Positions 1-37,038 of a stretch of DNA of 64,000 bases are shown here, piece after piece. Made by a program: the position numbers and the translations under genes. Origin of the DNA: Desulfobacteraceae bacterium (GTDB lineage: Bacteria > Desulfobacterota > DSM-4660 > Desulfatiglandales > B25-G16); the NCBI GenBank assembly GCA_030615105.1, contig JAUWZV010000001.1, positions 1,399 through 65,398 on the forward strand. Reading direction: 5' to 3'. The notes below the pieces were generated by a model. It worked only from the letters and a program-made list of their open reading frames with translations. It was not told the origin of the DNA and made no database searches. Position 1 is the first letter of the stretch. Each line of letters begins with the position of its first letter.

Positions 1-135
1 TATGGGCTGGTTGCTTATGCCAGTTAGCAATCCTTGGGGCCTTTTTATTTATGGGGGGATAGCTCACCGGTAGCGAAAAGACAGTTCCCGGCTGCCCTTC
101 CCTTCAACTCTTACCGGACCACTGTGGGGGTGGGA

Positions 136-909
136 ATGAGTGATTTAAAAAAATTAAAGCAAATTGAGTTATTGGAAAACAAAAGATTTCATAAAGAAAT
201 CTCAAAGTTCCTTGCACTTCAGTTAAGCATTGAAGATTTAACACAACGTTTAAAAGGGGGAGGTTTAGAGGCTGAAAAAATATCTAAAGAGCTTAACGAA
301 AAAAAAGATTTCTTATCATTTATAAAAAAGCATATCTCGGATGCATATGATATTAGTTTGCTTACATTAGATGGTAAGACTTATCCTGTTCGTACATCAA
401 AACCTATATCTTGTTTTTCACCACCATATAACTATAATCTTAACGAGATTTATGCCTCTCATCTTAACGCTGAAAACTACCTCTATCACTTAATGGGTAA
501 TAAGATATTGAATGATAAAACCAAAGAGCGTTTTATCCAGGATAACAAATTTTTATTTTTAAAAATCGATTTAAGTTACGATAAGGAAGATATAAAATTC
601 GAGATAGATGATATAGTTCAAAAAGCCCAAAATTTAATTGGAAAAAAAAGACCAGCAAAAGGGATACTCAAACAGCAATTATTTGACCATGTCTTTTCAG
701 ATTATGCAGCCATATTTCCTGTAAGAAAAGCCTGTGAAAGAACCTCAGCTTATTTAGAAAATGTACACAAAATAACAATTGATGCTGATTCATTGTATAG
801 AAGATATTACCCTGAATGGAAAAGGGGAAATAGAATATCGAATATTAGAACTTGGAAAAAACAAAAAGCAAGTAGCTGGAGGGATAAAGTAGGACAAATA
901 AATAATTAG
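136..909 (+). CDS. hypothetical protein (island cargo, coiled-coil-like N-terminus)
   Basis: Track ORF 34..909. I prefer the ATG at 136 (MSDLKKLKQ...) because it is preceded by a purine-rich GGGGGTGGGA. No domain recognised. A hairpin terminator follows. Confidence 0.5.
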   Translation: MSDLKKLKQIELLENKRFHKEISKFLALQLSIEDLTQRLKGGGLEAEKISKELNEKKDFLSFIKKHISDAYDISLLTLDGKTYPVRTSKPISCFSPPYNYNLNEIYASHLNAENYLYHLMGNKILNDKTKERFIQDNKFLFLKIDLSYDKEDIKFEIDDIVQKAQNLIGKKRPAKGILKQQLFDHVFSDYAAIFPVRKACERTSAYLENVHKITIDADSLYRRYYPEWKRGNRISNIRTWKKQKASSWRDKVGQINN

Positions 910-946
910 ACGTCACTTTTAATAAAATATCACCCTGATTATATTT

Positions 947-978
947 AGGCCGTAAGGTTAAAACTTACGGCCTTTTTA
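947..978 (+). terminator. intrinsic terminator
   Basis: AGGCCGTAAG-gttaaaa-CTTACGGCCT stem-loop followed by a T-run. Confidence 0.6.
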
Positions 979-999
979 TTCAAAAGGGAGGATAGATTT

Positions 1000-1218
1000 A
1001 TGAATTCAGAATTAAAGATTGCAAGGATAAGAGCAGGATTTAGCCAACACAAATTAGCATTTAAGATCGGAATAAGCCAGACCATTATCAGTACTTTTGA
1101 GCAAGGATACAAAAAACCCAATCAAGAACAGGCTGAATTGATTGCAGAAGCATTGAACGTCAGTATCAAAAACATTTTTCCTGAAATCAAGGAACAACCT
1201 ATTTTGGTTAAGGGATAA
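1000..1218 (+). CDS. XRE-family helix-turn-helix transcriptional regulator
   Basis: IARIRAGFSQHKLAFKIGISQTIISTFEQGYKKPNQEQAELIAEAL is a Cro/C1-type HTH pattern. A GGGAGG RBS lies upstream. Confidence 0.8.
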   Translation: MNSELKIARIRAGFSQHKLAFKIGISQTIISTFEQGYKKPNQEQAELIAEALNVSIKNIFPEIKEQPILVKG

Positions 1219-1312
1219 TAAACTATGGCAATATTACTCTTTAGCTATCGCTCACTCTTTGCTTGCATTGTAAATCTAATATTCAAAATATTGAACCTTA
1301 AGAGTGCATAAC

Positions 1313-3103
1313 ATGAAAAAGGCAATACAAAGCCACTTTCAAGGCAACTATCGAACCTTTTATGAGAAATATCTACCAGACGTTAAGAAAATAGGCGGTG
1401 AAGAATATAAGGCAAGATGCCCTTTTCACGATGATACTGAACCTTCTTTCAATTTTGATAATCAGACAGGTCAATATTTCTGTCATGGATGCAACAAAAA
1501 GGGCGACGCTATCCACTTTTACGCAAAGATTAATAGTCTGGATACCAGGCGGGATTTTGGCAAGATTCTAAGGGGCATAGCCAATGATTTTAATATTCCC
1601 TGGGAAGAAAACAGGCCGAAACTTATCAAAACATATAATTACACCGATGCAGAGGGTTTATTACTTTATCAGGTATGTAGATATGAGCCTAAGAATTTCA
1701 AGCAAAGACAGCCTAACAATAATGGTAGATGGACTTGGAATTTAAAAGGGATTGAGCCTGTATTGTATCAACTACCAAAGGTATTGGCAGCCAAAGAGGT
1801 TTTGATTGTTGAAGGTGAAAAGGACGTTGATAACCTAATGGAATTAGGATTGACAGCCACTACCTGCCCTATGGGAGTTAAAAAGTGGAGGCCAGAATAT
1901 AATGAATCTCTTAAAGGTAAGGATATTGTCTTGATACCTGATAATGACCTTGAGGGCAAAGAACACATGGCACAGATAGCAATATCCCTTAATGGACAGA
2001 CTAAAAGCCTTAAACTGATAGAACTCCCGGGCTTACCAAGTAAAGGCGATGTTTCTGATTTCATTGCTAAGTTTGATGATAAGGCAGAGGCAACCGAAAA
2101 GCTATCCATTATGATTGAAGGCGCAGGCCCTTACGAACCACCGAAAAAGGTCACTATTGAAGATGTCATTTTACAGGCCAAAGATTTTACTGCCCTTGAG
2201 CTACCAGCCAAAAAAAAGCTACTCAATCCCTGGCTAACAGAGCAATCAATCACCCTTATTAGTGGTTGGCGTGGAACTGGTAAAACATGGCTGGCCCTAT
2301 CTATACTTGATTCAGTTAGTAAGGGGGTATCCTTTGGCCCCTGGAAGGCAGAGACATCTACACCCTGTTTATTTCTTGACGGTGAAATGCCTACCCAAGA
2401 CATTATTGAGCGTACAAAGGATTTAGGTATTGATTCAACATATATCTACAGCGATGCTTATGCCAACAATCTTGGATTGCCAAAGGCTAACCTATTAAGT
2501 GAGACGTGGCGATCCACTATGAAACGTATTTTGACCACTAGGGGCATTAAATTATGGGTAATTGATAACCTTGCCTCTTTAGCAGGGGGTATTGATGAGA
2601 ATATAAAAAAGGATTGGGACCCGATAAACAGCTGGCTACTTGACCTTAGATTTGCAGGTATAGCAACTATAATGCTTCACCATGAAGGTAAAGGAGGGGG
2701 CCAGCGTGGCACATCTGCGAGAGAGGATAACCTTGATAATTCTATCATACTCAAGCGACCCTTTGACTATATACCAGAGGACGGATGTAAATTCATTATG
2801 CACTTTGCAAAGGCCAGGGTAAGAACTCAAGACCTATCGTTAATTTCTGATACTCAATTTCATTTGACCCAGGATGAACAGGGCGAGCTTGTATGGACAC
2901 ATGGTAATATTAAGGCTGAAGCTAAAAAAGAGATTCTCAGGCTAACAGATGAAGGATTACCACAAACCGATATTTGTAACTCTACAGGTCTTAGTAAGGG
3001 TTATGTAAGTAAGGTTAAAACTAAGTTAATCCAGGAAAATTATCTTGGCAAAAATGGGAAAATTACCCCTACAGGGATGGATTATCTTTATGAGGAAAAA
3101 TAG
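1313..3103 (+). CDS. bifunctional DNA primase / replicative helicase-like protein (CHC2 zinc finger + Toprim + RepA/DnaB-like P-loop)
   Basis: CHC2 finger: CPFHDDTEPSFNF..CHGCNKKGD. Toprim: LIVEGEKDVDN and IPDNDLEGK. P-loop ATPase: SGWRGTGKTWLAL, WVIDNLASL, HHEGKGG. The track ORF starts at GTG 1304; ATG 1313 is equally possible. Confidence 0.85.
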   Translation: MKKAIQSHFQGNYRTFYEKYLPDVKKIGGEEYKARCPFHDDTEPSFNFDNQTGQYFCHGCNKKGDAIHFYAKINSLDTRRDFGKILRGIANDFNIPWEENRPKLIKTYNYTDAEGLLLYQVCRYEPKNFKQRQPNNNGRWTWNLKGIEPVLYQLPKVLAAKEVLIVEGEKDVDNLMELGLTATTCPMGVKKWRPEYNESLKGKDIVLIPDNDLEGKEHMAQIAISLNGQTKSLKLIELPGLPSKGDVSDFIAKFDDKAEATEKLSIMIEGAGPYEPPKKVTIEDVILQAKDFTALELPAKKKLLNPWLTEQSITLISGWRGTGKTWLALSILDSVSKGVSFGPWKAETSTPCLFLDGEMPTQDIIERTKDLGIDSTYIYSDAYANNLGLPKANLLSETWRSTMKRILTTRGIKLWVIDNLASLAGGIDENIKKDWDPINSWLLDLRFAGIATIMLHHEGKGGGQRGTSAREDNLDNSIILKRPFDYIPEDGCKFIMHFAKARVRTQDLSLISDTQFHLTQDEQGELVWTHGNIKAEAKKEILRLTDEGLPQTDICNSTGLSKGYVSKVKTKLIQENYLGKNGKITPTGMDYLYEEK

Positions 3104-3283
3104 GAAACTTTCGAGGAAACTTTAATGACGTTAGGAATAGGAAACTTTTTAGGAAACTTTAGGAAACTCGAAATGAGGAAAGCAAGGACTACACTGTATT
3201 TCCTCAAACAGAGGGTAGGAAACTTTTCTTATTAGACACAGTAGTTTCCTCCACCCCCCTATAGGGGGAGGAAACAGGAAACT
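3102..3283 (+). repeat. iteron array (putative element replication origin)
   Basis: Exact AGGAAACT at 3102, 3114, 3139, 3151, 3161, 3217 and 3276. An inverted copy lies at 3243-3250. Degenerate copies lie at 3133, 3176, 3198 (inverted) and 3269. A near-palindrome AGTTTCCTCCACCCCCCTATAGGGGGAGGAAAC spans 3243-3275. The array begins at the stop codon of the primase/helicase gene. Confidence 0.6.
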
Positions 3284-3457
3284 TTTTATTAAATGAGTAT
3301 CCTTAAAGAACTATAAAATGGATATGAAATATCAATCCTTGAAGGTGGTTTTGAAAACTGAGTTAATGGAAAAAATAGGTATTTTAGGTATCTTGCTTGC
3401 ACGCACAGCGTATAGGAAAAATTAAGCATTATGGTTAAAGGGGGTTAGATAAGATAA

Positions 3458-3961
3458 ATGGATAAGAAAAAAGACAAGACAAAGCTTTTTAAGACTAATC
3501 CTGCAAGAAAACAACGTGACGCAACTATAGCTGAAATGAGATTGAAAGGGAAAAGTATTAGAGAGATAGCAAAAGAGATCGGGCTGGATAAATCGCAGGT
3601 TTGTAGGGTGCTAAACGATAAAGAAATTAAGAAAATATTAGATGAGGTACACCGTTTTTATGGTGGTTTTGCCGAAGATGTGAGCAGAGAGTTTATGAAC
3701 TTGTGTTTATTAAGTAGTGATCCAGCAATAAGAGAAAAAGCTATCAAAGAATATCACAAAATCATGGGGATAGCCCCCACGATGACGCAATCAATTTATA
3801 TTCGAAACCTATATCAAGACAATAGACAACAGATTCTCAGTCCTGATGTTTTGAAGCTTTTAGGTAAACACCTTCAAGATGGCATTATTGATATAACACC
3901 CCTAGAGATAGAGAAGATGAGTCCAAAAGAAAATGACCCGGAAGATGAGGAAGATGGATAA
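3458..3961 (+). CDS. HTH-domain protein, small-terminase-like or regulatory
   Basis: N-terminal HTH (GKSIREIAKEIGLDKSQVCRVLN), then a helical region and an acidic tail. The architecture resembles phage TerS/regulatory HTH proteins; this is resemblance only. Confidence 0.45.
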   Translation: MDKKKDKTKLFKTNPARKQRDATIAEMRLKGKSIREIAKEIGLDKSQVCRVLNDKEIKKILDEVHRFYGGFAEDVSREFMNLCLLSSDPAIREKAIKEYHKIMGIAPTMTQSIYIRNLYQDNRQQILSPDVLKLLGKHLQDGIIDITPLEIEKMSPKENDPEDEEDG

Positions 3962-4145
3962 TCAAATAACAAAAAGATTGCTAAGTGTTGAAGAAGTGGC
4001 CCAATATCTGGGGCTTTCTCCAAGGACTATTTATAATCAAATAGCTCCTAAGTCAAAAAGACCGTTTCCAATAAAGGCGAAAAGAATCGGCAAGCTTGTT
4101 AAATTTGATGTCAGAGATTTAGATAATTACATCGACACACTCTAA
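3954..4145 (+). CDS. AlpA/excisionase-family DNA-binding protein
   Basis: LLSVEEVAQYLGLSPRTIYNQI...GKLVKFDVRDLDNYI. The track ORF starts at 3933; ATG 3954 overlaps the stop of the upstream gene. Confidence 0.7.
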   Translation: MDNQITKRLLSVEEVAQYLGLSPRTIYNQIAPKSKRPFPIKAKRIGKLVKFDVRDLDNYIDTL

Positions 4146-4258
4146 GCTTAAAAGATAGTGGGCTATTGATAACTAATTGATATTTCTAATATTTTTCATA
4201 CTTAGGTCAAGACAAGGTCAACAGATTGAAAGAGAGATAACAAGATAATCAGAGTAAT

Positions 4259-4717
4259 ATGAAAATCCTCATTGATACCAGAGAACAGCAACCTTATGAG
4301 TTTGAAAATCTCTCAGAAGTGGGAACCATTCCTATAGGTGATTATAGTATTGCAGGTTTAGAGAATCATATAGCCATTGAACGCAAGGAACTTAATGACC
4401 TTATCGGATGCCTTACTACAGACAGAGACAGATTTGAACGTGAGTTATTTAAGGGGCGATCCCTGGATTACTTTGGTTTAGTTCTTGAGTGTTCTTTATC
4501 AGACCTTGCTAATGGCCGGTATAGATCAGAGATGGATCCTAAATCAGCAATTCAATCCCTGGTAGCATTTAGTGTGAGATACCGGTTACCGGTGTGGTTC
4601 TGTGAATCAAGGGAGTATGCGCAGCGTGTGACTGAAAGCCTGCTTTGTAAGTATGTCAAGGAGATAGATAAGCTTGACCAGGCTATCAAGGGTAATAAGA
4701 AGGTTAAGGGTGAATAG
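4259..4717 (+). CDS. ERCC4 (XPF/Mus81-type) nuclease domain protein
   Basis: IGDYSI...IERKELNDL matches the ERCC4 signature GDXnERKX3D. The protein is a 152-aa stand-alone domain. Confidence 0.7.
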   Translation: MKILIDTREQQPYEFENLSEVGTIPIGDYSIAGLENHIAIERKELNDLIGCLTTDRDRFERELFKGRSLDYFGLVLECSLSDLANGRYRSEMDPKSAIQSLVAFSVRYRLPVWFCESREYAQRVTESLLCKYVKEIDKLDQAIKGNKKVKGE

Positions 4718-4861
4718 CAGACTTAGGCCTCTGGGAGATCGTTTAACCTGGGCGTGATATGGGCTTATATCTACACAAACAGAGGTGATACAGGGCTGAT
4801 ATAAGGGATAGGGGCCTGATTAGGTAAGGAGAAGGCTGAGATAGGCAGGGAGTAATAGACC

Positions 4862-5038
4862 ATGAACCCCATAGAAGCAAACGAAACAGCTAAAGATATG
4901 CAGGATATGGGACAGAGAAAGGAAGAGGGGGTGCGGGGTGCAGAATGGGTCCCATACGACATGCTTATACAGGAACCTGAGGGCTCGACGCACGGGAAAA
5001 ACTTAACAGGAGCAATTTTGAGGGTCGGGAGAATTTAA
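4862..5038 (+). CDS. possible small acidic protein (58 aa), unannotated by the track
   Basis: ATG preceded by GGGAG about 7 nt upstream. Product: MNPIEANETAKDMQDMGQRKEEGVRGAEWVPYDMLIQEPEGSTHGKNLTGAILRVGRI. No domain recognised. It lies in a purine-rich 330-bp spacer. Confidence 0.25.
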   Translation: MNPIEANETAKDMQDMGQRKEEGVRGAEWVPYDMLIQEPEGSTHGKNLTGAILRVGRI

Positions 5039-5051
5039 GACTCAATGATAT

Positions 5052-5441
5052 CTAATTGTCTGTTAATTCTTTCAATATTGCATTTAATGCGATCTTATTG
5101 AAATGAGTAGTAAATCCACAGAAACAACGAAAAGGAGAACCAAGTGCTTTAGCCGACATAGCTATTTTACATCTAGGACAATATACAGCTTCGTGATAGC
5201 CTCCCTCCGGTCTCCTTTTAAAAAGAGCTCCTTTGTATTCTTTAAAATCCTCGCACGTTTCCACAAGCTCCTTGTATTTTTCGGATACCTCTCTCAATTT
5301 TTTCGCACACTCGGCATTCTCTTTCTTAAGCTCGATATTTTCTTTAGAGATTCTATCTATCTCAGCGTCAAGTTTAAGAAGCCGCTCTCTGAGGATACCA
5401 CTTACAGAGAATTCTTTCAAAAATTCAGCAATAAACCCCAT
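5052..5441 (-). CDS. hypothetical coiled-coil protein with C-terminal zinc-ribbon-like motif
   Basis: Heptad-rich N-half, then CPRCKIAMS...FRCFCGF. No clear RBS. Confidence 0.4.
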   Translation of the reverse strand: MGFIAEFLKEFSVSGILRERLLKLDAEIDRISKENIELKKENAECAKKLREVSEKYKELVETCEDFKEYKGALFKRRPEGGYHEAVYCPRCKIAMSAKALGSPFRCFCGFTTHFNKIALNAILKELTDN

Positions 5442-5861
5442 GAGATTATTCGAATAAAAATTTTAGTTAGCGAGTCATTATTGGATAAAAATAACATAGG
5501 GATATAATAAATACAAAAAAAAGGCAGGGGAAAGCGAAATTAAGCCTTCTCAGGGTTTATTTTTTTATCTTTCGTTCTTTGAAAACTAAATTCAAGGTGG
5601 GTAACAGCCAGCCTGAAGTCGGTTGTAATTCACGGAAGACCTACGCCCCAGTTTTGGGTAATGCAACACCGTGTCGTGGGACACCCACGTAGCAAGCCTA
5701 AGCGAAAAATGGCAGTTTTAAGACTACTAAAAGTATTCTAACCTTACATTGACAGTTCTTATTTTCCTTGACTGTTTTACTTTGAGCCTTACGACATCTC
5801 CTGCTTTTTTCTTTTGTACGTATTGATAAAAGTGAATCCTATTTAAAATCTTAAATCGCCC

Positions 5862-7289
5862 TCAGTTTTGTGGATATAATTTTTTAAAAATCCTTACTGC
5901 CAATTCTTTACTTCCACGAATCTTTTTTAATTTTCCATAGGCTTTTAGGGCTTCGTCTCTTTTTTCTTGCTTTAAATAAAGATTACATGCTTTGTAAAGA
6001 TAATCTATGGCATTATATGGTTGTCCTTGTTTAAGATAGTGATCTGCAAGATATTCGTAGAACACAATCTCATCAGGGAGTTTCTTGATAGCTACTTTAA
6101 CATCATTAATATATTGTCTTAATATAAAATTCGACCAGTTAACTTCATACCATGATTCATAAAGACTGAATAGAGCTAAATAAGAAAGTTCATCTATAAC
6201 CCCTGTTTCTTCCATGATTTCTTTAATTGCAAAAACTCCCTTACCGAATTCTTTAGATTTTTCAAATAGATTCATAATAGACCAATAATAACCCCCTGCC
6301 ATCCCACAATCATCACATGATGCAATTGCTTTTTTATAATAATAAATTGCATCATCTATCTTTTCTTGCTTTGCATACATGTCGCCTATATCATGATATA
6401 TGAAATCTTCCCTTACTCCCATTTCCTTAAGGGTGTCTTTTATTGAATCGTTTTTATCAATTAATTTTAAGGCAATATCATAATAGTCTATTGCTTGTTT
6501 AAAGTTGTTCTTATAGGTATGAATCCTACCTAATCCACAGCAAGCACTAATTATTAAATGATTTCTTTTTGCTTTTTCAAAAATGAATTCATACAACCTT
6601 AATGCCTCATCATAAAGTTTCTTTTTAAAAAAATCATTACTTTCAGTCATTCCCTCAAATAAAATATTTCTGGCACAAACACTGTAATAATCAAGCACTG
6701 ACTCCCATTCGGCAGGAACTAACCGCCTATGAGGTTTTTCAATATATTTTTCAACAATCTTTATCATTTCCCAGGCATTTGGAATCCTGGCTTCGATCTT
6801 ACAGCATTTGGAACACTCATAAGGGGTAGGGAGAGTATAAATTGCATCGATAAAATTTATATAGGCTGAATCAAATTTACCTTCTACATAATCTTTCTTT
6901 CCTGCTTGCAGATATTTGTCGTATTTCACCTGCTCAGGCAATAAAGCCATAAGGTCAAAATGGACATGGAGGACACCATTTTTTGCCGAACTGCAAATGA
7001 TTTCTGAATCGTAATACCCGTCCTTTTTGACTTGATAACACCGAGGTTGCGTTTGCAGCCCAGAGATAGAAGTGGAATACGGAGTTTTAAATGAAGTCTC
7101 TACCGATTTATCTTGAGATATCCACTCATAGATATCTGCCCCTTGTGGATTGGAATTGACGACCACCTTGGTAGTACGCTTTTTAATAGCGCTTTCCTGA
7201 ATAGTACTTTCCTTAATAGCGCCTGTGCAACCTGAAATGAAAAGCATCATTAAGATAAACAGAAAAACGGTTTTTTTGTTATCATGCAA
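5862..7289 (-). CDS. PEGA-domain / TPR-repeat lipoprotein
   Basis: Track ORF 5862..7367. A TTG at 7289 preceded by GGAGG (7294-7298) gives MHDNKKTVFLFILMMLFISGC, a lipoprotein signal peptide with lipobox. There is a PEGA-like NSNPQGADIY motif and several TPR-like repeats. Confidence 0.7.
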   Translation of the reverse strand: MHDNKKTVFLFILMMLFISGCTGAIKESTIQESAIKKRTTKVVVNSNPQGADIYEWISQDKSVETSFKTPYSTSISGLQTQPRCYQVKKDGYYDSEIICSSAKNGVLHVHFDLMALLPEQVKYDKYLQAGKKDYVEGKFDSAYINFIDAIYTLPTPYECSKCCKIEARIPNAWEMIKIVEKYIEKPHRRLVPAEWESVLDYYSVCARNILFEGMTESNDFFKKKLYDEALRLYEFIFEKAKRNHLIISACCGLGRIHTYKNNFKQAIDYYDIALKLIDKNDSIKDTLKEMGVREDFIYHDIGDMYAKQEKIDDAIYYYKKAIASCDDCGMAGGYYWSIMNLFEKSKEFGKGVFAIKEIMEETGVIDELSYLALFSLYESWYEVNWSNFILRQYINDVKVAIKKLPDEIVFYEYLADHYLKQGQPYNAIDYLYKACNLYLKQEKRDEALKAYGKLKKIRGSKELAVRIFKKLYPQN

Positions 7290-7527
7290 GCTGCCTCCAT
7301 AAATAGAAAACCTCACCTCTTCAAGACAAGAGAAACTGGGTTCAAATATAATCCATATCACCCCCAATTAAGGGCTATCGAAGTAAAGCAAAGATCCACG
7401 TTAAGAATAGGTCTTTATACCTCAAATTTCAACGAAAAAGAAAAAGTGAATGGGTTATTCCATGGGTATCCGAAATATGCGATTGTGGGCGACATATGCC
7501 CTTTTAGCTAGGCAATGAAATGAGAAG

Positions 7528-7689
7528 CTACTTTGAAGATTTGGGTGGGTTCTTTCCGTACTTTTTGAGAAGTTCTTGCATAGCCTCTTCAAGTATAAAA
7601 TTTATAGGCTTTTCAAGATCGATAGCAAGCTTCTTAAATTTTTTCAAGAGATCATTATTTATGAGGGTTGAGAACATCTTCTTTTCCAT
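7528..7689 (-). CDS. ribbon-helix-helix (CopG/Arc-like) protein, 53 aa, missed by the ORF track
   Basis: MEKKMFSTLINNDLLKKFKKLAIDLEKPINFILEEAMQELLKKYGKNPPKSSK shows a strand-helix-helix pattern. It is transcribed divergently from the integrase gene. Confidence 0.6.
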   Translation of the reverse strand: MEKKMFSTLINNDLLKKFKKLAIDLEKPINFILEEAMQELLKKYGKNPPKSSK

Positions 7690-7736
7690 AAAATAAATAA
7701 TAATATCAAGAAATCAAAAAATCAATAAAAAATAAT

Positions 7737-7766
7737 TTGACAAACTTGAATCAATGATATATTGAT
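7737..7766. promoter_or_regulatory. candidate promoter/operator in the divergent RHH-int control region
   Basis: TTGACA (7737-7742) followed by the palindrome ATCAAT-N5-ATTGAT (7750-7766) in AT-rich DNA. The -10 element is weak. Confidence 0.3.
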
Positions 7767-7829
7767 ATATTTAGATCATTTATTCATAATCTCTAAACCA
7801 CAAGCGATGACATTTAAAACAAAAAATAG

Positions 7830-7907
7830 ACCGTTCAAGTTAGGCTATGTCGTGAGGTGTAGCCAGGGTGCTTGTGCCCTTGAGTACAACTTGAGCGGTT
7901 TTATTTG
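7830..7907 (+). promoter_or_regulatory. terminator-like long hairpin in the integrase leader (possible attenuator)
   Basis: ACCGTTCAAGTT (7830-7841) pairs with AACTTGAGCGGT (7888-7899). TTTTATTT follows, about 25 nt upstream of the int start. Confidence 0.4.
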
Positions 7908-7931
7908 GCCTAATGGCCAGGGAGGTTAATT

Positions 7932-9128
7932 ATGGCTATCTTAGCAGAATGTCCAAAATGCCACAGAAAGCAGACCACAAGGAATAAGCTTTGTGCTTGT
8001 GGTGCAGACTTGGACAAATTAAAGAGATCTAAAAAGGTCAGGTATTGGATTAACTATCGACTACCAGGTGGCAAACAGCGCAGGGAGCTTGTTACTATGC
8101 AAGGCAATCCAGATGCTTGCTGCTCCATTGAAATAGCCAGGGATGCAGACGGTAAAAGGAGAGTACAGAAAAGAGAGAACCGGATATTTGACATCAAACC
8201 GGAAACCAAAATGACCTTTAACGAGCTTACAGAGTGGTACCTGGGCCTTGAGAAAGTTAAATCTCTTGCATCTTATTCCATATTGCAAGGCTACCTTAAG
8301 AAATTCAATTCAGAATTTGGAAACAAGATTGTAGGTCAGATTAAACCCGCTGACTTAGAAAATCTTCAGGCGAAGCGTAAGAAGGAAGGTTGTGCCGATG
8401 CTACCGTTGATCAGGAAATAGGCAAGGTCAGGGCTATGATCTTTAAAGCGTTTGATAATGATATTGTGGGAGGTGATACTATCAAGGCATTCAAGAGAGT
8501 CAAAAAACTACTTAAAGGAAATGCAAACGCACGGGATAAGATACTTTCTAAAGATCAGTTTAATAAGCTTTTAGAGTCTTCTTCCAGGCACCTTAAAGGG
8601 ATTCTTGCTACTGGCTATTATACCGGCATGAGAAAAGGCGAAATTCTAAATCTTACCTGGAATAAGCTTGATCTAAAAAATCGGCTTATTCAACTTGAGG
8701 CAGAAGATACTAAGGATAAAGAGCCGAGAAATATCCCTATCTGTGATGATCTATATGAGATATTGAGCGCCATACCAAGGGCAATATATGACCCCCATGT
8801 GTTTCTCTATAATGGTAAACCCATTAGAGATATTAGAACTGCTTTGAGAAAGGCCTGTAAACAAGCAGGTATACTCTACAGTCGATTTGCTAAGGATGGT
8901 TTTATATTTCACGATCTTCGCCACTGTTTCAATACAAATATGAGAAAAGCAGGGATCCCTGAATCTGTGATTATGCAGGTTACTGGCCATTCAACCAGGG
9001 AGATGTTCGACCGATATAACACAATTGACCTTAAGGATACCCAGCAGGCTATTAATCAGTTACAAAATTTTTTGAATGTTGACCATTCTGTTGACCAAGC
9101 GGCCCAAAATGACAAAAATAAGGATTAG
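7932..9128 (+). CDS. tyrosine recombinase / phage-type integrase with N-terminal zinc ribbon
   Basis: CPKCHRK...CACG at the N-terminus. Catalytic pattern: TGMRKGEIL (R), HDLRHCF (HxxR), GHSTREMFDRYNT (H..Y). It ends 32 nt from the tRNA 3' end. Confidence 0.9.
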   Translation: MAILAECPKCHRKQTTRNKLCACGADLDKLKRSKKVRYWINYRLPGGKQRRELVTMQGNPDACCSIEIARDADGKRRVQKRENRIFDIKPETKMTFNELTEWYLGLEKVKSLASYSILQGYLKKFNSEFGNKIVGQIKPADLENLQAKRKKEGCADATVDQEIGKVRAMIFKAFDNDIVGGDTIKAFKRVKKLLKGNANARDKILSKDQFNKLLESSSRHLKGILATGYYTGMRKGEILNLTWNKLDLKNRLIQLEAEDTKDKEPRNIPICDDLYEILSAIPRAIYDPHVFLYNGKPIRDIRTALRKACKQAGILYSRFAKDGFIFHDLRHCFNTNMRKAGIPESVIMQVTGHSTREMFDRYNTIDLKDTQQAINQLQNFLNVDHSVDQAAQNDKNKD

Positions 9129-9159
9129 CAGAAAATCCGCTAACCCTTAAACAGTCTTA

Positions 9160-9246
9160 TGGTGCCGAAGGCGGGACTTGAACCCGCACGGGCATAACCC
9201 ACTACCCCCTCAAGATAGCGTGTCTACCAGATTCCACCACTTCGGC
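9160..9246 (-). tRNA. tRNA-Leu (anticodon GAG), CCA encoded
   Basis: The reverse complement GCCGAAGTGGTGGAATCTGGTAGACACGCTATCTTGAGGGGGTAGTGGGTTATGCCCGTGCGGGTTCAAGTCCCGCCTTCGGCACCA folds as a class II cloverleaf. Anticodon stem CTATC/GGTAG, loop TTGAGGG, long variable arm, T-loop GGTTCAAGTCC. Confidence 0.9.
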
Positions 9247-9309
9247 ATAAGAGCTTAGGGCTTCGCCCAATTGGCCTCCGGCCCGTATGGCCTACGCCCC
9301 GGAGGGAAT

Positions 9310-9422
9310 ATTGGAGTAATGGAGTACTGGAATAATGGGTTTAAAGGAAGAAGAACAATCGAAAATTATCTTTCCCATTTTTACTCATCCCAATGTTCCA
9401 CTATTCCATCATTCCATTTGGG
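9310..9422. repeat. inverted-repeat element (ATTGGAGTAATGGAGTACTGGAATAATGGG arms)
   Basis: The left arm (9310-9339) is roughly complementary to the right arm (9389-9422). A related element lies at 51952-52083. Confidence 0.55.
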
Positions 9423-9492: not shown

Positions 9493-9846
9493 TTATCTTT
9501 CAGTTTTTGTATCAGAAGGGATATTAGTATTTATTGGTTTAGCCTTTTCTTGCTCACTTGCCTTTAAAGGCCTTTCCTGTTGAGTTTTGGCTTTCCCCTC
9601 CATAATAGAAGATTTTGGAGCCCTGGATGCTAAAAAGGCCAAGGTAAGGGAAGTTATCATAAAAGCAATAGCCACGCCTGCAGTTAATTTGTTGAGAAAA
9701 GGTGCAGCGCCAGCACTCCCAAATATTGTCTGGCTACTACCTCCAAATGCAGCTCCCAAGTCAGCTCCTTTACCAGCTTGGAGAAGTATACCTATTACCA
9801 ACCCGATACAAATAAATACGTGAATAATTATGAGCATTGTCGTCAT
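9493..9846 (-). CDS. secG: preprotein translocase subunit SecG
   Basis: IIHVFICIGLVIGILLQAGKGADLGAAFGGSSQTIFGSAGAAPFLNKLT is the typical SecG core. tRNA-Leu lies downstream, as in E. coli secG-leuU. Confidence 0.85.
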   Translation of the reverse strand: MTTMLIIIHVFICIGLVIGILLQAGKGADLGAAFGGSSQTIFGSAGAAPFLNKLTAGVAIAFMITSLTLAFLASRAPKSSIMEGKAKTQQERPLKASEQEKAKPINTNIPSDTKTER

Positions 9847-9954: not shown

Positions 9955-10217
9955 TATAATGAGACCTTTACATAATTCACATTTTCTTAACGAGGATGGG
10001 CTTTTCTTCAGTTCCGAGGCTCCCGGGCTGGTCTTTTCAGCAACTTATCTACGGGGGAGTTTTGCCCCCTCCGCATTGCCCCGACATGTCGGGGCCTGCG
10101 GTTTCCCCCACTGATAAGTCGCGAAAAGACAGCGCCCTACCGCCAGTTACTTCAGAAAAGCCCACCCTCTTTTTTAGGGTGACAAAAATTGTCAGATTTT
10201 GCAAAGGTCTCATAATA
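9955..10217 (+). repeat. diverged third copy (core only) of the 291-bp rod-hairpin element, nested in an outer inverted repeat
   Basis: 10001-10163 aligns by eye (about 85 percent) with the centre of 16504-16794. The outer inverted repeat is ATGAGACCTTT (9958-9968) / AAAGGTCTCAT (10203-10213). Confidence 0.6.
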
Positions 10218-10414
10218 TGATTCGTCAGTAATCCCCATTAGAAGATTTGAACGGGGCTTGAAACCACTCTCAAACTTATTGATACTTTCACTCCACTATA
10301 AATGATAAGGCTTTTTTTCTAACGGGGTAAATATTCAATTCTTGACATTTATATAAATTTGGTTAACTATGATTTTAAAAGATATATATTCTTTGTGGCC
10401 ATAAAAAGGATAGT

Positions 10415-10723: not shown

Positions 10724-10822
10724 ATTATCATTATATAATATTTAATATCTTATTAACTACTCCCTTTAACTTTAACTCTCCTGGTAACCCCTATCAGAAT
10801 TTTACGAAGAATAACCAGAATG

Positions 10823-10944
10823 CCCCGACTTTTAGTCGGGGATGAATGGTCAAAATAAGCAAGCAATGTCGAAGTCATTGCTAAGCAAGTTCGAGCGGCA
10901 TACTGCGAGAACTTGCGCCAAGAAGCCCCGACCTTTGGTCGGGG
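10823..10944. repeat. hairpin cluster (CCCCGAC-N5-GTCGGGG family)
   Basis: CCCCGACttttaGTCGGGG (10823-10841), AGCAATGtcgaagtCATTGCT, CAAGTTC...GAACTTG and CCCCGACctttgGTCGGGG (10926-10944). The same apical hairpin type occurs in the 291-bp element. Confidence 0.5.
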
Positions 10945-11075: not shown

Positions 11076-12475
11076 CTAAAGTTCAATTATTAAATTTCGA
11101 TATCTATTCAGATTTACCATGACTCTGGCTGCCCTTTCAGGTGTGGAGAAATTGACAAGAATTTTAGCCTCCTCAAACTGTTTTATCTGCTCATCCCATA
11201 TTTTAGGTGGGGCCGAAAGGCAGGTGATGATAGGTTTTTTCTGCTCCCTATAATTTAATAAGAACGACAGACTTTTAATAGAAACAACATTGGCAGAGGC
11301 AAACATCATAAATAGAAGTATACCTGCTACGTTTTCATCTCGCATAACTGCATGCAAAATGCCAACGAGTGCCTCTGAGTTATACCATGCTGGACCCATA
11401 TCCACCGGGTTTGTTCTTAAAGCCAGAGGGGGCAGAATCTCGTTTATCTTATTCTGGGTTTCACGTGTAAATGAAACTATGTTAAGACCAGCCATCTGAC
11501 AAATATCAGCGGCGGCTATACCCGGACCAGCTTGAGAGGAGAGTATAGCCACACCTGAACCATTTAGTACAGGTGATCCGGCTAATGCCTTGGCTGTATC
11601 TAATAGGTCCTCCATGCTATTCACTTCCATTATGCCTGCCTGGCTAAATGCCCCTGAATAAATCTCCCCTCTTCCAGCCATAGATCCTGTATGGGAATGG
11701 GATGCCTTATCCCCTATATCTCCGACACCTGTTTTGTAGGCAATAATTGGTTTTTTACCCTTATATGTCTTGGCCGTGTCTATTAGTCCCTTTGGATCAT
11801 CAATACCCTCTATATAAAGGGCTATTACATATGTATCTGGGTCATGCATTAAATAATCAACCATCTGCACAAAATCTACATTCAGCCGGTTTCCGATTCC
11901 TACTATCTTACTGAAGCCTATATTATCCCTCATGGCCATAAAAGAGAGCAGATGGCACATTCCCCCCCGCTCTGGCTGGCAAGCCCAATACTGCCCTTTC
12001 TTAACAAAGAAAACTCTGGCGTGAATGAGGCATTCAGGTTGGCGTGTAAATTTATCATACCAAAGGTATTGGGGCCGATTACTGGCACATTAGGCCTGTT
12101 TACAATTTTGGCAAGCTGGTCATGAAGATTTGAACCAATTGGATCATCAATCTCCTTAAATCCGGCTGTAATAAGGACTATACCCTTAACACCTTTAGCA
12201 AGGCATTCTTCAAAGATCGCAGGAACCATTTTTGCTGGTAGCACTACTATGGCCAAGTCAATATCATATGGAAGTTCCGTTATGGAGGGAAAAGTCTTCA
12301 GACCCATAATCTCTTTTGAACCAGGATTAATGGGTATAATCTTACCCGGGAAGTCCCCCTTAGTCAGACTCTTCATTACATGAAACCCAAGCTTAGCTTC
12401 CTTTTCCGATGCACCTATAACTGCTACTGACTTGGGGTTAAAGAGTATATTCATGTTGCCTATTTTCATATCCAT
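11076..12475 (-). pseudogene. ADP-forming acyl-CoA synthetase alpha / CoA-binding (succinyl-CoA-ligase-like) protein, split by a frameshift
   Basis: ORF 11930..12475 (NPKSVAVIGAS...LASQSGG) and ORF 11076..11960 (...IGFSKIVGIGN...HTGSMAG...) are consecutive halves of one roughly 465-aa protein. The frames switch at a C7 run (11962-11968; G7 on the coding strand). One extra G would restore SQSGGGMCHLLSF. Confidence 0.75.
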
Positions 12476-16503: not shown

Positions 16504-16794
16504 CCTATCAACAATCGGCAGAGGACCCCGGGCGTAAGCCCGGGGGTGAATGCCTTAATGAGCACAACCTTGATGTCTTTTCTTACGTTCCAAGGCTCCC
16601 GGCCTGGTCTTTTCAACGACTTATCTGCAAGGGAGTTTTGCCCCCTCCGCATTCCCCCGACAAGTCGGGGGCTGCGGTTTCCCCCGCTGATAAGTCGTGA
16701 AAAGGACGGCGGCTTCTCACCAGTCACTCAGAAAAAACATCAAGGCCTGCCCTTGTCTCCAAGTGCCACGGGCGTAAGCCCGTGGGTATCTACT
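16504..16794 (+). repeat. 291-bp rod-hairpin repeat, copy 1
   Basis: Identical to 36748-37038 except for 7 substitutions and no indels (manual comparison). It contains two 8-bp hairpins with GTAA loops (16526-16545, 16766-16785) and a long central self-complementary region. Confidence 0.85.
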
Positions 16795-17961: not shown

Positions 17962-19119
17962 ATGGATTTCTCATTAAGTGAAGAACAGGAGATCTTACGT
18001 AATTCAATAAGGAAATTCCTGGAAAAGGAATATCCTAAAGAATACATTAGGAGAATCGATAAAGAAGAAGAATATCCTTTGGAGATCGTTCAAAAGATGG
18101 CCGAGTTGGGATGGCTTGGTCTTTCAATTCCAGAGAAATATGGAGGGGTTGGGGGTGACATTCTTGATCAGACTCTGATGATTGAAGAACTGGCTCGGTG
18201 TTCATCATCCATCGCTATAGCTTACTTGCTCAATATTTGTTTTGGTGCCAAGACCATCATTTACATGGGTAGCGAGAAGCAGAAAAAAAAATATTTACCT
18301 AAAATAGCCTCCGGTGATCTGATATTTTGTCTGGGCCTGACAGAGCCCAGCGGCGGAACAGATGCCCTCTCCTTGTCCACTCGAGCTGTAAGAAATGGTG
18401 ACCATTATGTAATCAATGGACAGAAGGTATTTATCACTGGGGCTCACGTATCTCACTACATAATTCTTGTGGCTAGGACGGGTCCCAAAAAGAAAAAACT
18501 AACACGAAATATTGGCATTTTTTTAGTGGATAGCAAGTCAAAAGGGATCAATATCCGTCTGCTTGATAAGCTCGGAAATAAAGCAACTGGAACCTGTGAA
18601 ATATTTTTAGAGGATGTGGTCGTTCCAGCCGAAAACATACTAGGTGATGAACGAAATGGTTGGTATCAAATCGTTAACACTCTTAATAACGAGAGGATTT
18701 CAGTAGCCGCTATTTGCTTAGGAACGACCCAGGCAGTTATCGATGAATCTTTGAAATATGTCTTGGAGCGAAAGGCATTTGGCAAGCCCATAGGTCAGTT
18801 TCAATATATTCAGAAATATATTGTCGATATGGTGATGGATCTGGAGGCCTCCCGGTTACTTACTTACAAGGCCGCCTGGCTTGAATCTCAAGGCAAAAAT
18901 TGCAATATTGAAGCTGCCATAGCCAAATTGGTGGCATCAGAGGCCTGTTTTAAAGCAACCACGAACGGAATGCGCATTTTCGCCGGATATGGGTACATGA
19001 TGGAATATGACATGCAGAGACTGTGGCGTGATTCTGAACTTTGGATCTTTGCCCCCATATCAAATGAAATGTCACGCAACCTTTTAGCGCAAGAATTGGG
19101 ACTCCCCAGATCTTATTGA
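17962..19119 (+). CDS. acyl-CoA dehydrogenase
   Basis: 385 aa. GLTEPSGGTDA and a typical ACAD three-domain pattern, with a C-terminal helical domain containing the catalytic-region motif YGYMMEYDMQRLWRD. Confidence 0.9.
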   Translation: MDFSLSEEQEILRNSIRKFLEKEYPKEYIRRIDKEEEYPLEIVQKMAELGWLGLSIPEKYGGVGGDILDQTLMIEELARCSSSIAIAYLLNICFGAKTIIYMGSEKQKKKYLPKIASGDLIFCLGLTEPSGGTDALSLSTRAVRNGDHYVINGQKVFITGAHVSHYIILVARTGPKKKKLTRNIGIFLVDSKSKGINIRLLDKLGNKATGTCEIFLEDVVVPAENILGDERNGWYQIVNTLNNERISVAAICLGTTQAVIDESLKYVLERKAFGKPIGQFQYIQKYIVDMVMDLEASRLLTYKAAWLESQGKNCNIEAAIAKLVASEACFKATTNGMRIFAGYGYMMEYDMQRLWRDSELWIFAPISNEMSRNLLAQELGLPRSY

Positions 19120-19246
19120 TCAAGTAATGTGGTCTCATGGAGCAGGCTGGGGTATGTATAAATCAAACATCATACGGTTTTCTGGTGGCAGAAAACCGGG
19201 GAAAGGGTAGTTTTTAAAACATTAATCACCATTGTGGGTATAAAAT

Positions 19247-20386
19247 ATGGGCAAGAGAGTAGCGATTGTTGATACGGTTCAGACCGAACACGGAGACAAA
19301 CTTGAGGACAATATCCGGGAGATCATGTTTGGCGTTGTCAGACAGCTCCTGGATCGTGTGGGAATTGAGAAATCCGAAATCGGGACCATGGTTTCAGCCT
19401 CCTCTGATTATTGGGAGGGGATCAGTTGCTCCAACGCCTATTATTATGATGCTGCGGGTGCCAATCTGAAGAGCGGTTCCAACGCGGAAGAGGACTCGGG
19501 TCTCGCCTTTATCTATGGTTTTATGCGAATTCTCTCGGGGGACTATAAAACCGCGTTGGTCATCAGTATAACGAAATGTTCGGAGACCCCCTCAGCGGCC
19601 ACTCTAACACACATGAGTGCGGACCCTTTTTTTCACCGGCCGGTCGGGCTAAATGAAACGGTGGTTGCAGGTCTTCAGGCAAGGGAATATATGAACCGCT
19701 ATGGCATCACAGAAGAAGACCTGGCCATGGTGGTGGTAAAAAATCTCGGAAACGCCCAAAAAAATCCATATGCACATAGGGGTGGGCAACTGTCTGAGGA
19801 AGAGGTCTTGGCTTCATCCATGATGGTCTATCCCTTGCGAGAAATGGATATCCCCTCCACCTCTGATGGTGCCTGCGCAGTTTTATTGGCCGAGGAAAAG
19901 ATTGCCAGGGATCTGACCGATACACCGATATTTGTTGAGGGCGTGGGCTGGGGTACTGATCATTCCTTTTTGGGAGATCGAAATCTTTTAAATGGATCCT
20001 TGCCAAAAGCGGCTGAGAGGGCCTATCAGATGGCTGGGGTAAAAGATCCTTCCAACGAGATAGACATGGCCGAAATCTGCGATATAACCTCCTTTCATGA
20101 GATCTTATGGATGGAGCAATTGGGTTTTTGCCCCCCAGGAAAGGGAGCAGATCTTGTCAAAGACGGCGTAACAGCTATGCATGGCAAACTTCCGGTGAAC
20201 CCTTCCGGAGGTTTGTTTGGGGCCAATCCCTATGTTGCCCGCGGTCTGATCCGGATTGCTGAGGCCGCTATGCAGCTAAAGGGAGAGGCGGGAGATCGTC
20301 AGGTGCTGGACGTGAGCAGGGCGGTTGCCCAAAGCGTTCACGGGTTGGGCGGTCAATTACATTCTGTCATTATTCTTGGAACATAG
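19247..20386 (+). CDS. SCP-x-type thiolase-like protein lacking the nucleophilic Cys
   Basis: Thiolase-like throughout (VNPSGGL, HGLGG). Where the paralog has ATCGSTG, this protein reads NAEEDSGLAF. Confidence 0.8.
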   Translation: MGKRVAIVDTVQTEHGDKLEDNIREIMFGVVRQLLDRVGIEKSEIGTMVSASSDYWEGISCSNAYYYDAAGANLKSGSNAEEDSGLAFIYGFMRILSGDYKTALVISITKCSETPSAATLTHMSADPFFHRPVGLNETVVAGLQAREYMNRYGITEEDLAMVVVKNLGNAQKNPYAHRGGQLSEEEVLASSMMVYPLREMDIPSTSDGACAVLLAEEKIARDLTDTPIFVEGVGWGTDHSFLGDRNLLNGSLPKAAERAYQMAGVKDPSNEIDMAEICDITSFHEILWMEQLGFCPPGKGADLVKDGVTAMHGKLPVNPSGGLFGANPYVARGLIRIAEAAMQLKGEAGDRQVLDVSRAVAQSVHGLGGQLHSVIILGT

Positions 20387-36747: not shown

Positions 36748-37038
36748 CCTATCAACAATCGGCAGAGGACCCCGGGCGTAAGCCCGGGGGTGAATGCCTT
36801 AATGAGCACGACCTTGATGTCTTTTCTTACGTTCCAAGGCTCCCGGCCTGGTCTTTTCAACGACTTATCTGCAGGGGAGTTTTGCCCCCTCCGCATTCCC
36901 CCGACAAGTCGGGGGCTGCGGTTTCCCCCGCTGATAAGTCGTGAAAAGGACGGCGGCCTCTCACCAGTCACTCAGAAAAAACATCAAGGCCTGCCATTGT
37001 CTCTAAGTGCCACGGGCGTAAGCCCGTGTGCATCTACT
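36748..37038 (+). repeat. 291-bp rod-hairpin repeat, copy 2
   Basis: Same orientation as 16504-16794, with 7 substitutions. It begins inside the mutase-4 reading frame. Confidence 0.85.

Follow-up and report, generated by a model that had tools for sequence, protein, structure and literature searches.

A probable virion-less integrative island at a tRNA-Leu gene of a Desulfobacteraceae bacterium, with a primase-helicase predicted to recognize its adjacent iteron origin

Phage satellites and 'hitcher' islands are thought to account for a large share of the genomic islands that otherwise go unexplained. Among the described systems, PICIs (phage-inducible chromosomal islands) are defined by a scheme of five core components in which tail, holin, portal and head-tail connector genes are 'forbidden', and more than 99.9% of the PICIs found with SatelliteFinder lie in Proteobacteria or Firmicutes (PMC10085698). 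Close analogues of the locus described here are the marine VEIMEs (PMC9618062) and the tycheposons of Prochlorococcus (10.1101/2020.12.28.424599), and satellites have also been described in Streptomyces and mycobacteria (PMC10690885, PMC12822802); an earlier annotation of this DNA (the initial annotation), by which elements of this kind have hardly been described beyond Enterobacteria and Firmicutes, is therefore dated on this point. Here we analyse a 64,000-nucleotide stretch of contig JAUWZV010000001.1 from a Desulfobacteraceae bacterium (the window), which begins within a mobile element that sits in the 3′ end of the tRNA-Leu(GAG) gene of the host, with secG upstream of that gene. This tRNA-Leu island is, on balance, probably a single compact (~9.3 kb) integrative, self-replicating and virion-less mobile element that occupies about -140 to 9158 of the window.

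The case for self-replication is carried by the primase-helicase gene and the DNA immediately 3′ of it. The protein combines a CHC2 zinc finger (Zn_ribbon_DnaG, 1e-14), a Toprim region covered by phrog_6088 and NF005477, and a RecA-like ATPase domain (AAA_25, 3e-26), and it also matches phrog_239 (6e-32); the Toprim motifs EGEKD and DNDLEG and the Walker A sequence GWRGTGKT are legible, and residues of about 540-596 form a C-terminal winged helix-turn-helix (wHTH). Directly after the stop codon, the iteron AGGAAACTT occurs in six exact copies at 3102-3284, which are all the copies in the window. The expectation is 1.16 copies per 64 kb, and six were reached in 0 of 100 shuffles. The array includes a palindrome built of inverted iteron halves (3243-3275) and is followed by an AT-rich stretch (3285-3345). 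The domain matches and the six iterons bear out the initial annotation, which had read this region as a CHC2-Toprim-P-loop primase/helicase with iterons immediately downstream.

Iteron-like repeats were found no further than about 330 nt 3′ of the primase-helicase stop codon in all 13 relatives examined, and across the relatives (window 2930-3345; L007-L017, L002, L025) the iteron sequence tracks a helix of the C-terminal wHTH. The helix LSKGYVSK is accompanied by AGGAAACTT in the window, L016 and L015, whereas seven elements with the helix T[KR]QYVSK..QIQAKKDG carry TGGTTGAC; VSRPYVSK is paired with TGGTTAAYT in L011 and ISRGQVSK with TGGAAACAT in L017, and both L002 and L025 have further variants of their own. 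Because the helix covaries with the adjacent iterons, the primase-helicase would also be the origin-recognition protein, with its C-terminal wHTH predicted to bind the iterons. This covariation is the best evidence for a functional origin and for one polypeptide that may act as initiator, helicase and primase. In its domain order, with a CHC2 zinc finger followed by Toprim and a RecA-like hexameric-helicase-type ATPase, it agrees with T7 gp4 and Twinkle, to which the island protein adds the iteron-covarying wHTH. Relatives of the protein in phage and plasmid databases reach 24-35% identity at most, and the best phage matches (25-31%) are annotated as primase/helicase or DnaG/twinkle. Orthologues at 63-84% identity were found on ~20 metagenome contigs, and the nearest genome relative is encoded in the chromosome of a Desulfobacterales metagenome-assembled genome (59%).

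The right end of the island is fixed by two independent observations, which place the element/host junction at 9158|9159. Logan contig L001 (9,156 bp, k=31 assembly) contains only element DNA, is 100% identical to window 33-9188 and ends exactly 30 nt beyond 9159, the putative start of the att core; from the behaviour of de Bruijn assemblers, such a stop would imply a repeat of at least 31 nt beginning at 9159. A conspecific contig from another metagenome (L063), which encodes an identical SecG, matches the window at 99% identity between 11940 and 9159 and then continues leftward as 26 nt of unrelated sequence (reverse complement of the flank, AGAGTGTAGAAATTTATTTATAAAAG). Since the divergence sets in one base past the tRNA 3′ end, the boundary falls at 9158|9159. 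The initial annotation had proposed looking for an empty secG-tRNA-Leu site in relatives: the conspecific population does have a different junction at tRNA-Leu, with the site either empty or filled by something else. The target is the sole tRNA of the 64-kb window (ARAGORN), and the same gene order was found at the E. coli secG-leuU locus, as had been suggested. By contrast, the extent of 1-9246 first assigned to the element needs correction, since its actual end is 9158, its left end lies off the window, and the tRNA is host DNA rebuilt by the att core.

The left attachment site, attL, is absent from the window: repeat finding and a pattern search with 3 mismatches gave no copy of the tRNA 3′ end in 1-9100. 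By synteny with four relatives, we place attL ~100-140 nt left of the window start. In L012, L008 and L009, a partial tRNA or tmRNA 3′ fragment, not called as a gene by ARAGORN, lies ~150-190 nt left of an int-alpA RNA-like motif and the first open reading frame (ORF), with a host gene beyond the fragment in L009; given this spacing and the motif at 52-118 of the window, attL would lie ~100-140 nt upstream. In the complete relative L014, the primase gene begins ~1.2 kb from attL, which matches the offset of the primase gene from the window start. Phage or conjugation genes are unlikely to occupy the predicted interval between window start and attL. It is very improbable that the visible 9 kb are merely the integrase-proximal tip of a larger prophage or integrative conjugative element continuing upstream. 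Room for such an element would be left by the position of attL outside the window and by the length of the source contig, whose 67,316 bp exceed the window by 3.3 kb, but the motif and first ORF stand close to the partial tRNA in three relatives, the L014 primase offset is the same, and the independent element-only assembly starts at window 33.

The lack of structural genes and of a visible attL would also suit a decayed, immobile prophage remnant, a reading that we consider the least probable of all. Against it, the backbone genes are all intact with their catalytic motifs and the iteron array is perfect, the conspecific population (99% identity) shows a different junction at the same tRNA, the relatives are equally compact with intact att repeats, and close variants of the element genes (81-90% identity) are present in other samples.

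The ~20 related elements in metagenome contigs, several of which carry a ribbon-helix-helix (RHH) gene and an integrase gene besides the primase-helicase gene, define what the family has in common: primase-helicase, RHH gene, integrase, an excisionase-type helix-turn-helix (HTH) protein and sometimes an XRE regulator, with all else variable. Element ends lie at tRNA-Leu(CAA) in L011, at tRNA-Lys(CTT) in L014, at a tmRNA-like 3′ fragment in L008 and at other tRNA 3′ fragments in L009, L012 and L015. The most complete comparison is offered by L014 (1-9672), in which 50-nt direct repeats, copies of the 3′ half of tRNA-Lys, enclose 9,475 bp, the core beginning 2 nt outside the tRNA. Besides the backbone, this element encodes a P27-type small terminase subunit (TerS; phrog_83) together with a major head protein of the HK97 type (phrog_10, 9e-26); no portal, large terminase, tail or other virion gene was found in it beyond these two. 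The same TerS recurs in L025; its gene lies downstream of that for the primase in both elements, and it is unrelated to the 167-aa protein of the island described below. In L015, a ~400-nt repeat (6431-6830 and 19028-19426; period 12,597 bp; 100% identical over the 300 nt reported) spans the partial tRNA into the start of int, so that the contig passes from the end of the element into its beginning again, suggesting that L015 may exist in circular or tandem form.

Some further observations were made on these contigs. The head-protein gene of L014 is interrupted by a homing-endonuclease ORF, accompanied by a group I intron match below threshold (5493-5791; 27.9 versus 50 bits), and 7669-7738 of the same contig gives a sub-threshold match to Proteo-phage-1 RNA. 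Distant relatives of the primase-helicase (29-56% identity) were found beside tRNA-Sec genes (L025 29-126, L027 1610-1708, L030 5029-5127), which suggests that tRNA-Sec is a further integration target of the wider family. A Pfam search with ten slot-equivalent or first-gene proteins of the relatives gave no matches.

The element DNA preceding the first gene holds a second feature shared with relatives. Here, the motif at 52-118 of the window matches the complete int-alpA RNA model with 28.9 bits, short of the gathering score (35.8 bits), at E 0.01 in 10.5 kb and 3e-4 in 300 nt, and positionally equivalent motifs exceed that score in L009 (43.7 bits), L008 (41.5), L017 (39.3) and L015 (41.2). 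The L012 motif scores 32.4 bits, and L012 255-306 is 85% identical to window 56-107. A structural alignment of six instances showed compensatory changes in all three stems, both-sided in P1, P2 and P3, with at least two standard pair types in 13 of 16 pairs, a small sample that was counted by hand on a manual alignment because the MAFFT columns were not structure-consistent. In the five instances with a placeable ORF, the motif ends a few tens of nucleotides before a non-homologous first ORF, and this constant position before unrelated genes suggests that it is a leader or regulatory RNA which goes with the backbone and not with the gene downstream. Descriptions of the int-alpA RNA place it, in Proteobacteria, close to genes for integrase, alpA and primase, and it is not known to have a function.

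As the initial annotation had noted, the island lacks virion genes: none of its ten proteins matched a capsid, portal, tail, large-terminase or lysis family of PHROGs or Pfam at E<=0.01. One gene nevertheless points towards packaging. The 167-aa HTH protein encoded 3′ of the origin is likely to have a TerS-type function, as judged from its family and its predicted fold. The match to phrog_2538 covers profile positions 10-102 of 129 (~70%). Exhaustive HMMER searching retrieved 304 homologues, compared with four by word-indexed search, and phrog_2538, 'terminase small subunit', was matched by 43 of the 90 aligned family members, with a best E value of 1.2e-13. The AlphaFold2 (AF2) model (pLDDT 84) shows an N-terminal HTH followed by long helices, and its top fold matches in the PDB are chains of 2ao9 (probability 0.90-0.97, but E 0.13-0.36 and TM <0.5), which has been treated as a putative nonameric TerS (PMC7672466); the TerS of E217 (7uxe) stands lower in the list. 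The initial suggestion of a resemblance to small terminases is thus supported by the family, whereas the protein's own match reaches just 6e-4 and its fold matches have E values above 0.1.

Other searches with this protein were less specific. With tblastn against phage genomes only the HTH motif was recovered, the family profile matched only generic HTH repeats among PDB sequences, and the genomic context of the other homologues was uninformative as the contigs are too short. Homology of the family to the slot-equivalent proteins of L008, L015, L009 and L011 was considered and rejected (hhalign probabilities 0.5-29%). Where context is seen, homologues again sit behind a replication module, and in L066 and L068 an HTH_17 gene comes next, from which the pair appears to move as a cassette. 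A homologue at 81% lies behind a separate DnaB_C/AAA_25 helicase and DnaG zinc-ribbon primase (L066 437-1791, L067 1152-3046).

These data bear on whether the island depends on phages at all. It could instead be a phage-independent cargo island, a plasmid-like circle moving by vesicles, transformation or chance transduction, in which the 167-aa protein is a transcription regulator; we regard this as rather unlikely, yet as an alternative to be taken seriously. A capsid gene is present in L014 and none in the window element, three cargo genes are unrelated to phage biology, most relatives are without a packaging gene among the matches listed, the 167-aa protein also gives weak matches to CII-like regulators and invertase HTH domains, and tycheposons include just such a cargo class (10.1101/2020.12.28.424599). 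What speaks for packaging instead is the terS match of nearly half the aligned 167-aa family, the putative TerS nonamer as top fold match, and the unrelated TerS that L014 and L025 carry downstream of the primase gene. A phage-satellite lifestyle of the island, which would entail helper dependence and packaging, is plausible, and the capsids of a phage would be its most likely means of spread.

A conjugative helper offers another route, in which the island would be an integrative mobilizable element with an unrecognized oriT or relaxase, for example the 257-aa orphan. Three proteins have no assignable function, and among the plasmid primase-helicase relatives at 24-35% identity 52 of 145 are on plasmids predicted to be mobilizable. 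However, no relaxase, coupling-protein or type IV secretion system match was obtained among the element proteins in Pfam, NCBIfam or PHROGs, the orphan occurs in no relative and so is not the family's transfer function, and the relatives have capsid and terS genes (L014) and no mobilization genes among the matches listed. We consider this explanation improbable.

The satellite-like reading, under which we continue, places the island closest to PICIs and tycheposons. In common with PICIs of the SaPI and EcCICFT073 types, it has a similar size class and site-specific integration with int at one end, and it resembles them in function by an HTH protein of the AlpA/MerR class, a primase-helicase with an iteron origin immediately 3′ and a probable small-terminase-like gene; it lacks tail, holin and portal genes. 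The PICI-like logic proposed at the outset stands to the extent that four of the five PICI core components have probable counterparts in function here and the forbidden tail and holin genes are absent (PMC10085698), which makes the island functionally akin to a 'Type B' PICI. The differences are equally clear: the replication protein is a fusion of DnaG-Toprim and RecA-like AAA_25 with its own wHTH and not of the PICI Pri-Rep type, RHH and XRE proteins take the place of a Stl-like master repressor, the host is uncultured and probably belongs to Desulfobacterota rather than Proteobacteria or Firmicutes, and induction of the island by a helper phage is hypothetical. With another replication-protein family and no capsid-morphogenesis gene, the island is not a demonstrated member of the PICIs. 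Of the genes of capsid-forming PICIs (cfPICIs: own major capsid protein, portal, head-tail adaptor/connector, terL), none is found in the island, and L014 has the major capsid protein (MCP) and TerS only.

Tycheposons resemble the family in being tRNA-targeting tyrosine-recombinase elements with partial tRNA flanks, an excisionase and a primase/helicase, and in joining one integration/replication backbone either to cargo or to PICI-like terS and MCP genes, a division to which the contrast between the island and L014 is alike (10.1101/2020.12.28.424599). Host phylum and habitat differ, and the comparison is one of functional organization only. In addition, the island combines a TerS-like gene with cargo, a mix never observed according to the tycheposon paper (10.1101/2020.12.28.424599), and its family has hallmarks beyond those of tycheposons in the int-alpA RNA, the RHH-int pair and the presumed iteron-binding wHTH. 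Marine VEIMEs are likewise small, with tyrosine integrase, primase/helicase, AlpA, excisionase and terS homologues and without a major capsid gene, but they were defined by concatemers recovered from virus particles (PMC9618062), whereas the island is known from genes. With P4-like satellites, also named in the initial annotation, the island shares an integrase at tRNA-Leu, an AlpA-class regulator, a large primase-helicase and an int-alpA-type RNA motif. Membership in that group was nevertheless rejected: Psu, Sid, Delta and Epsilon are without a PHROG or Pfam match, and the primase-helicase is of DnaG/AAA_25 and not of alpha/D5 type. Thus, the island is a PICI-like or tycheposon-like integrative replicative element and not a P4-like one.

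Several points weigh against this interpretation. Excision, replication, packaging and a helper phage are predicted from genes alone, and a capsid-morphogenesis gene, a PICI core component, was not found in the island, nor do SaPI-type 'Type B' PICIs have one. Among the 25 families listed, of the 42 that a PHROG census matched in 109 ORFs from 14 other relatives, none was a capsid, portal, tail or large-terminase family, and IMG/VR gave just two matches to the primase-helicase, at 30-34% identity. The TerS assignment is moderate given the E values and TM scores above, in most relatives the protein that fills the corresponding slot has no detectable homology to the 167-aa protein, and in the one IMG/VR context examined (contig L062) a replication gene lies upstream of the homologue with no adjoining large terminase. 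Three of the ten proteins have no assigned function and could hide another transfer mechanism. Finally, attL lies outside both the window and L001, and the total size and the lack of upstream genes rest on the synteny of relatives.

The coordinates of all features are collected in Table 1.

Table 1. Features of the tRNA-Leu island and the adjoining host genes (window coordinates).
Feature	Position	Strand	Basis
Left arm of element, cut by window edge	1-51	+	attL predicted further left
int-alpA RNA-like motif (Rfam RF02996), 5′ leader of first ORF	52-118	+	28.9 bits, full-length model match
Orphan 257-aa protein, variable 'first gene' slot	136-909	+	no family match
Terminator-like hairpin closing first transcription unit	947-973	+	10-bp stem, then T run
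XRE/Cro-type HTH regulator	1000-1218	+	HTH_3 PF01381 8e-14; phrog_2439, phrog_3, phrog_8
Primase-helicase, 596 aa: CHC2 zinc finger, Toprim, RecA-like AAA_25, C-terminal wHTH	1313(1304)-3103	+	profile matches
Replication origin (predicted)	3099-3345	.	six exact iterons and degenerate copies, palindrome, AT-rich stretch
167-aa HTH protein, probably small-terminase-like	3458-3961	+	phrog_2538 (terS) E 6e-4
Excisionase-family HTH_17 protein (Xis/AlpA-like), 70 aa, overlaps 167-aa gene	3933-4145	+	PF12728 1e-9, TIGR01764, phrog_66 2e-9
Stand-alone ERCC4/XPF-type nuclease	4259-4717	+	PF02732 7e-11, phrog_3490 5e-21
129-aa coiled-coil protein with C-terminal CxxC...CxC zinc ribbon; cargo	5052-5441	-	weak coiled-coil matches only
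Tetratricopeptide-repeat (TPR) protein, lipoprotein-type signal FISGC; cargo	5862-7367	-	TPR_12, TPR_1, TPR_2 ~1e-13
Arc/RHH repressor-like gene, 53 aa, divergent from int	7528-7689	-	PF12651, phrog_3180 5e-11
Divergent rhh/int control region (putative role)	7690-7931	.	short repeats ATCAAAAA x3, TGATATAT x2
Tyrosine integrase	7932-9128	+	PF00589 5e-23, phrog_1 3e-56
Hairpin and T run, element-borne, putative terminator of rebuilt tRNA-Leu	9119-9149	-	14-bp stem
attR, start of att core	9159-9189	.	predicted core of at least 31 nt, running into tRNA 3′ half
Host tRNA-Leu(GAG), integration target	9160-9246	-	ARAGORN and Rfam, 49.2 bits
Host secG, directly upstream of tRNA-Leu	9493-9846	-	PF03840 match on identical product

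The integrase, with its catalytic motifs TGMRKGE, HDLRH, GHS and RY readable in the sequence, ends 31 nt from the tRNA 3′ end. At its N-terminus (window 7932-8030), a CPKC...CACG zinc-ribbon extension precedes the usual SAM-like domain. The RHH gene is kept in L010, L011, L014, L015 and L019, in all but L015 of which it lies beside int, and homologous XRE genes stand upstream of the primase gene in L009, L013, L018 and L024. Integrase, divergent RHH regulator and XRE regulator are thus as initially described. The 'AlpA-type excisionase' needs rewording: the 70-aa HTH_17 protein exceeds the cut-off of the TIGR01764 excisionase family (32.8 versus 28.8 bits), but it has no match to Pfam Phage_AlpA and is of AlpA type only in sharing the HTH class. 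A promoter scan gave no more sites than shuffled sequences.

The four genes first listed as cargo fared differently. In L013 and L016, an ERCC4 orthologue (77% and 62% identity) is encoded downstream of the primase gene, in L013 directly after the AlpA-like gene, and because of this recurrence the stand-alone ERCC4 nuclease, itself correctly recognized, probably belongs to the replication/recombination backbone. The protein without recognizable domain, given as 258 aa and in fact of 257 aa, matched nothing in Pfam, PHROGs, NCBIfam or PADLOC and retrieved only itself from 5.8e9 proteins by word-indexed search; its AF2 single-sequence model (pLDDT 47) was too poor for a fold search. A coiled-coil zinc-ribbon protein is present as described, although no family match supports it, and it has no homologue in the relatives. 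For the PEGA/TPR lipoprotein, which also lacks homologues in the relatives, the TPR repeats were recovered by Pfam and the FISGC lipobox was read by eye, whereas PEGA was not recovered by Pfam. Orphan, zinc-ribbon protein and TPR lipoprotein are, on this presence pattern, member-specific cargo, and PADLOC found no defence-system match for any cargo gene. Between the ERCC4 gene and the convergent cargo genes, 4718-5051 is purine-rich (GC 0.48) and non-coding, with no Rfam match.

The 55 kb to the right of the island are ordinary chromosome, with genes for methylmalonyl-CoA mutase, beta-oxidation, glyceraldehyde-3-phosphate dehydrogenase (GAPDH), sigma-54 and ABC transporters. No phage genes were found in this flank, so that no helper prophage is visible there. 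Four local features of the flank were recorded. A 369-nt insertion (9958-10326) is a polymorphic element resembling miniature inverted-repeat transposable elements (MITE-like), since inverted repeats (TATAATGAGACCTTT / AAAGGTCTCATAATA) mark its termini, two more copies in the window (16577-16735 and 36821-36979) share 86% identity and three conspecific contigs (L063-L065) are without it. A 138-nt segment (10806-10943), absent from the same contigs, lies between two CCCCGAC...GTCGGGG hairpins and looks REP-like. Short TGGAGTAA-type repeats occupy 9305-9340 between the tRNA and secG, and assemblies L064 and L065 both break at 9305. At 11076-12475 on the minus strand, two ORFs overlap, one of 294 aa that has a Succ_CoA_lig domain and one of 181 aa, and they seem to represent a single ADP-forming acyl-CoA synthetase gene that a frameshift or an assembly error has broken.

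Reading the genes together, we propose the following cycle for the island. The tyrosine integrase would recombine a core that repeats the tRNA 3′ end over at least 31 nt, with int under Arc/RHH control from the divergent promoter region and the HTH_17 excisionase directing excision. The excised circle would then replicate from the iteron origin, where the iterons and their covariation are observed and the biochemistry is predicted, with the origin recognized by the wHTH of the single polypeptide that would also supply helicase and primase. Expression of the leftward module may be gated by the XRE protein and the int-alpA-like leader RNA. In the last and weakest step, the TerS-like protein might redirect the packaging motor of a helper phage to island DNA, so that the island would leave the cell in borrowed capsids, as is thought for PICIs and PICI-like tycheposons.

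More tentatively, and short of an even expectation, the islands may represent an undescribed satellite lineage of sediment Desulfobacterota-like bacteria, in which one backbone is combined with interchangeable capsid-hijacking modules and the int-alpA RNA serves as a conserved switch across phyla. If so, the backbone would consist of the RHH-int pair, the int-alpA leader RNA and the single-polypeptide initiator/helicase/primase with its matched iterons, and the hijacking modules would be MCP with P27-type TerS in L014 and the phrog_2538-type TerS in the window. From anaerobic sediment bacteria, the family provides an example with clear limits, to which a complete relative flanked by att repeats can be compared. 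It gives a genomic setting outside Proteobacteria for the int-alpA RNA, and it offers a testable origin-recognition code in which the wHTH helix predicts the iteron sequence. Capsid-encoding and cargo-carrying islands can, as in tycheposons, share one backbone.

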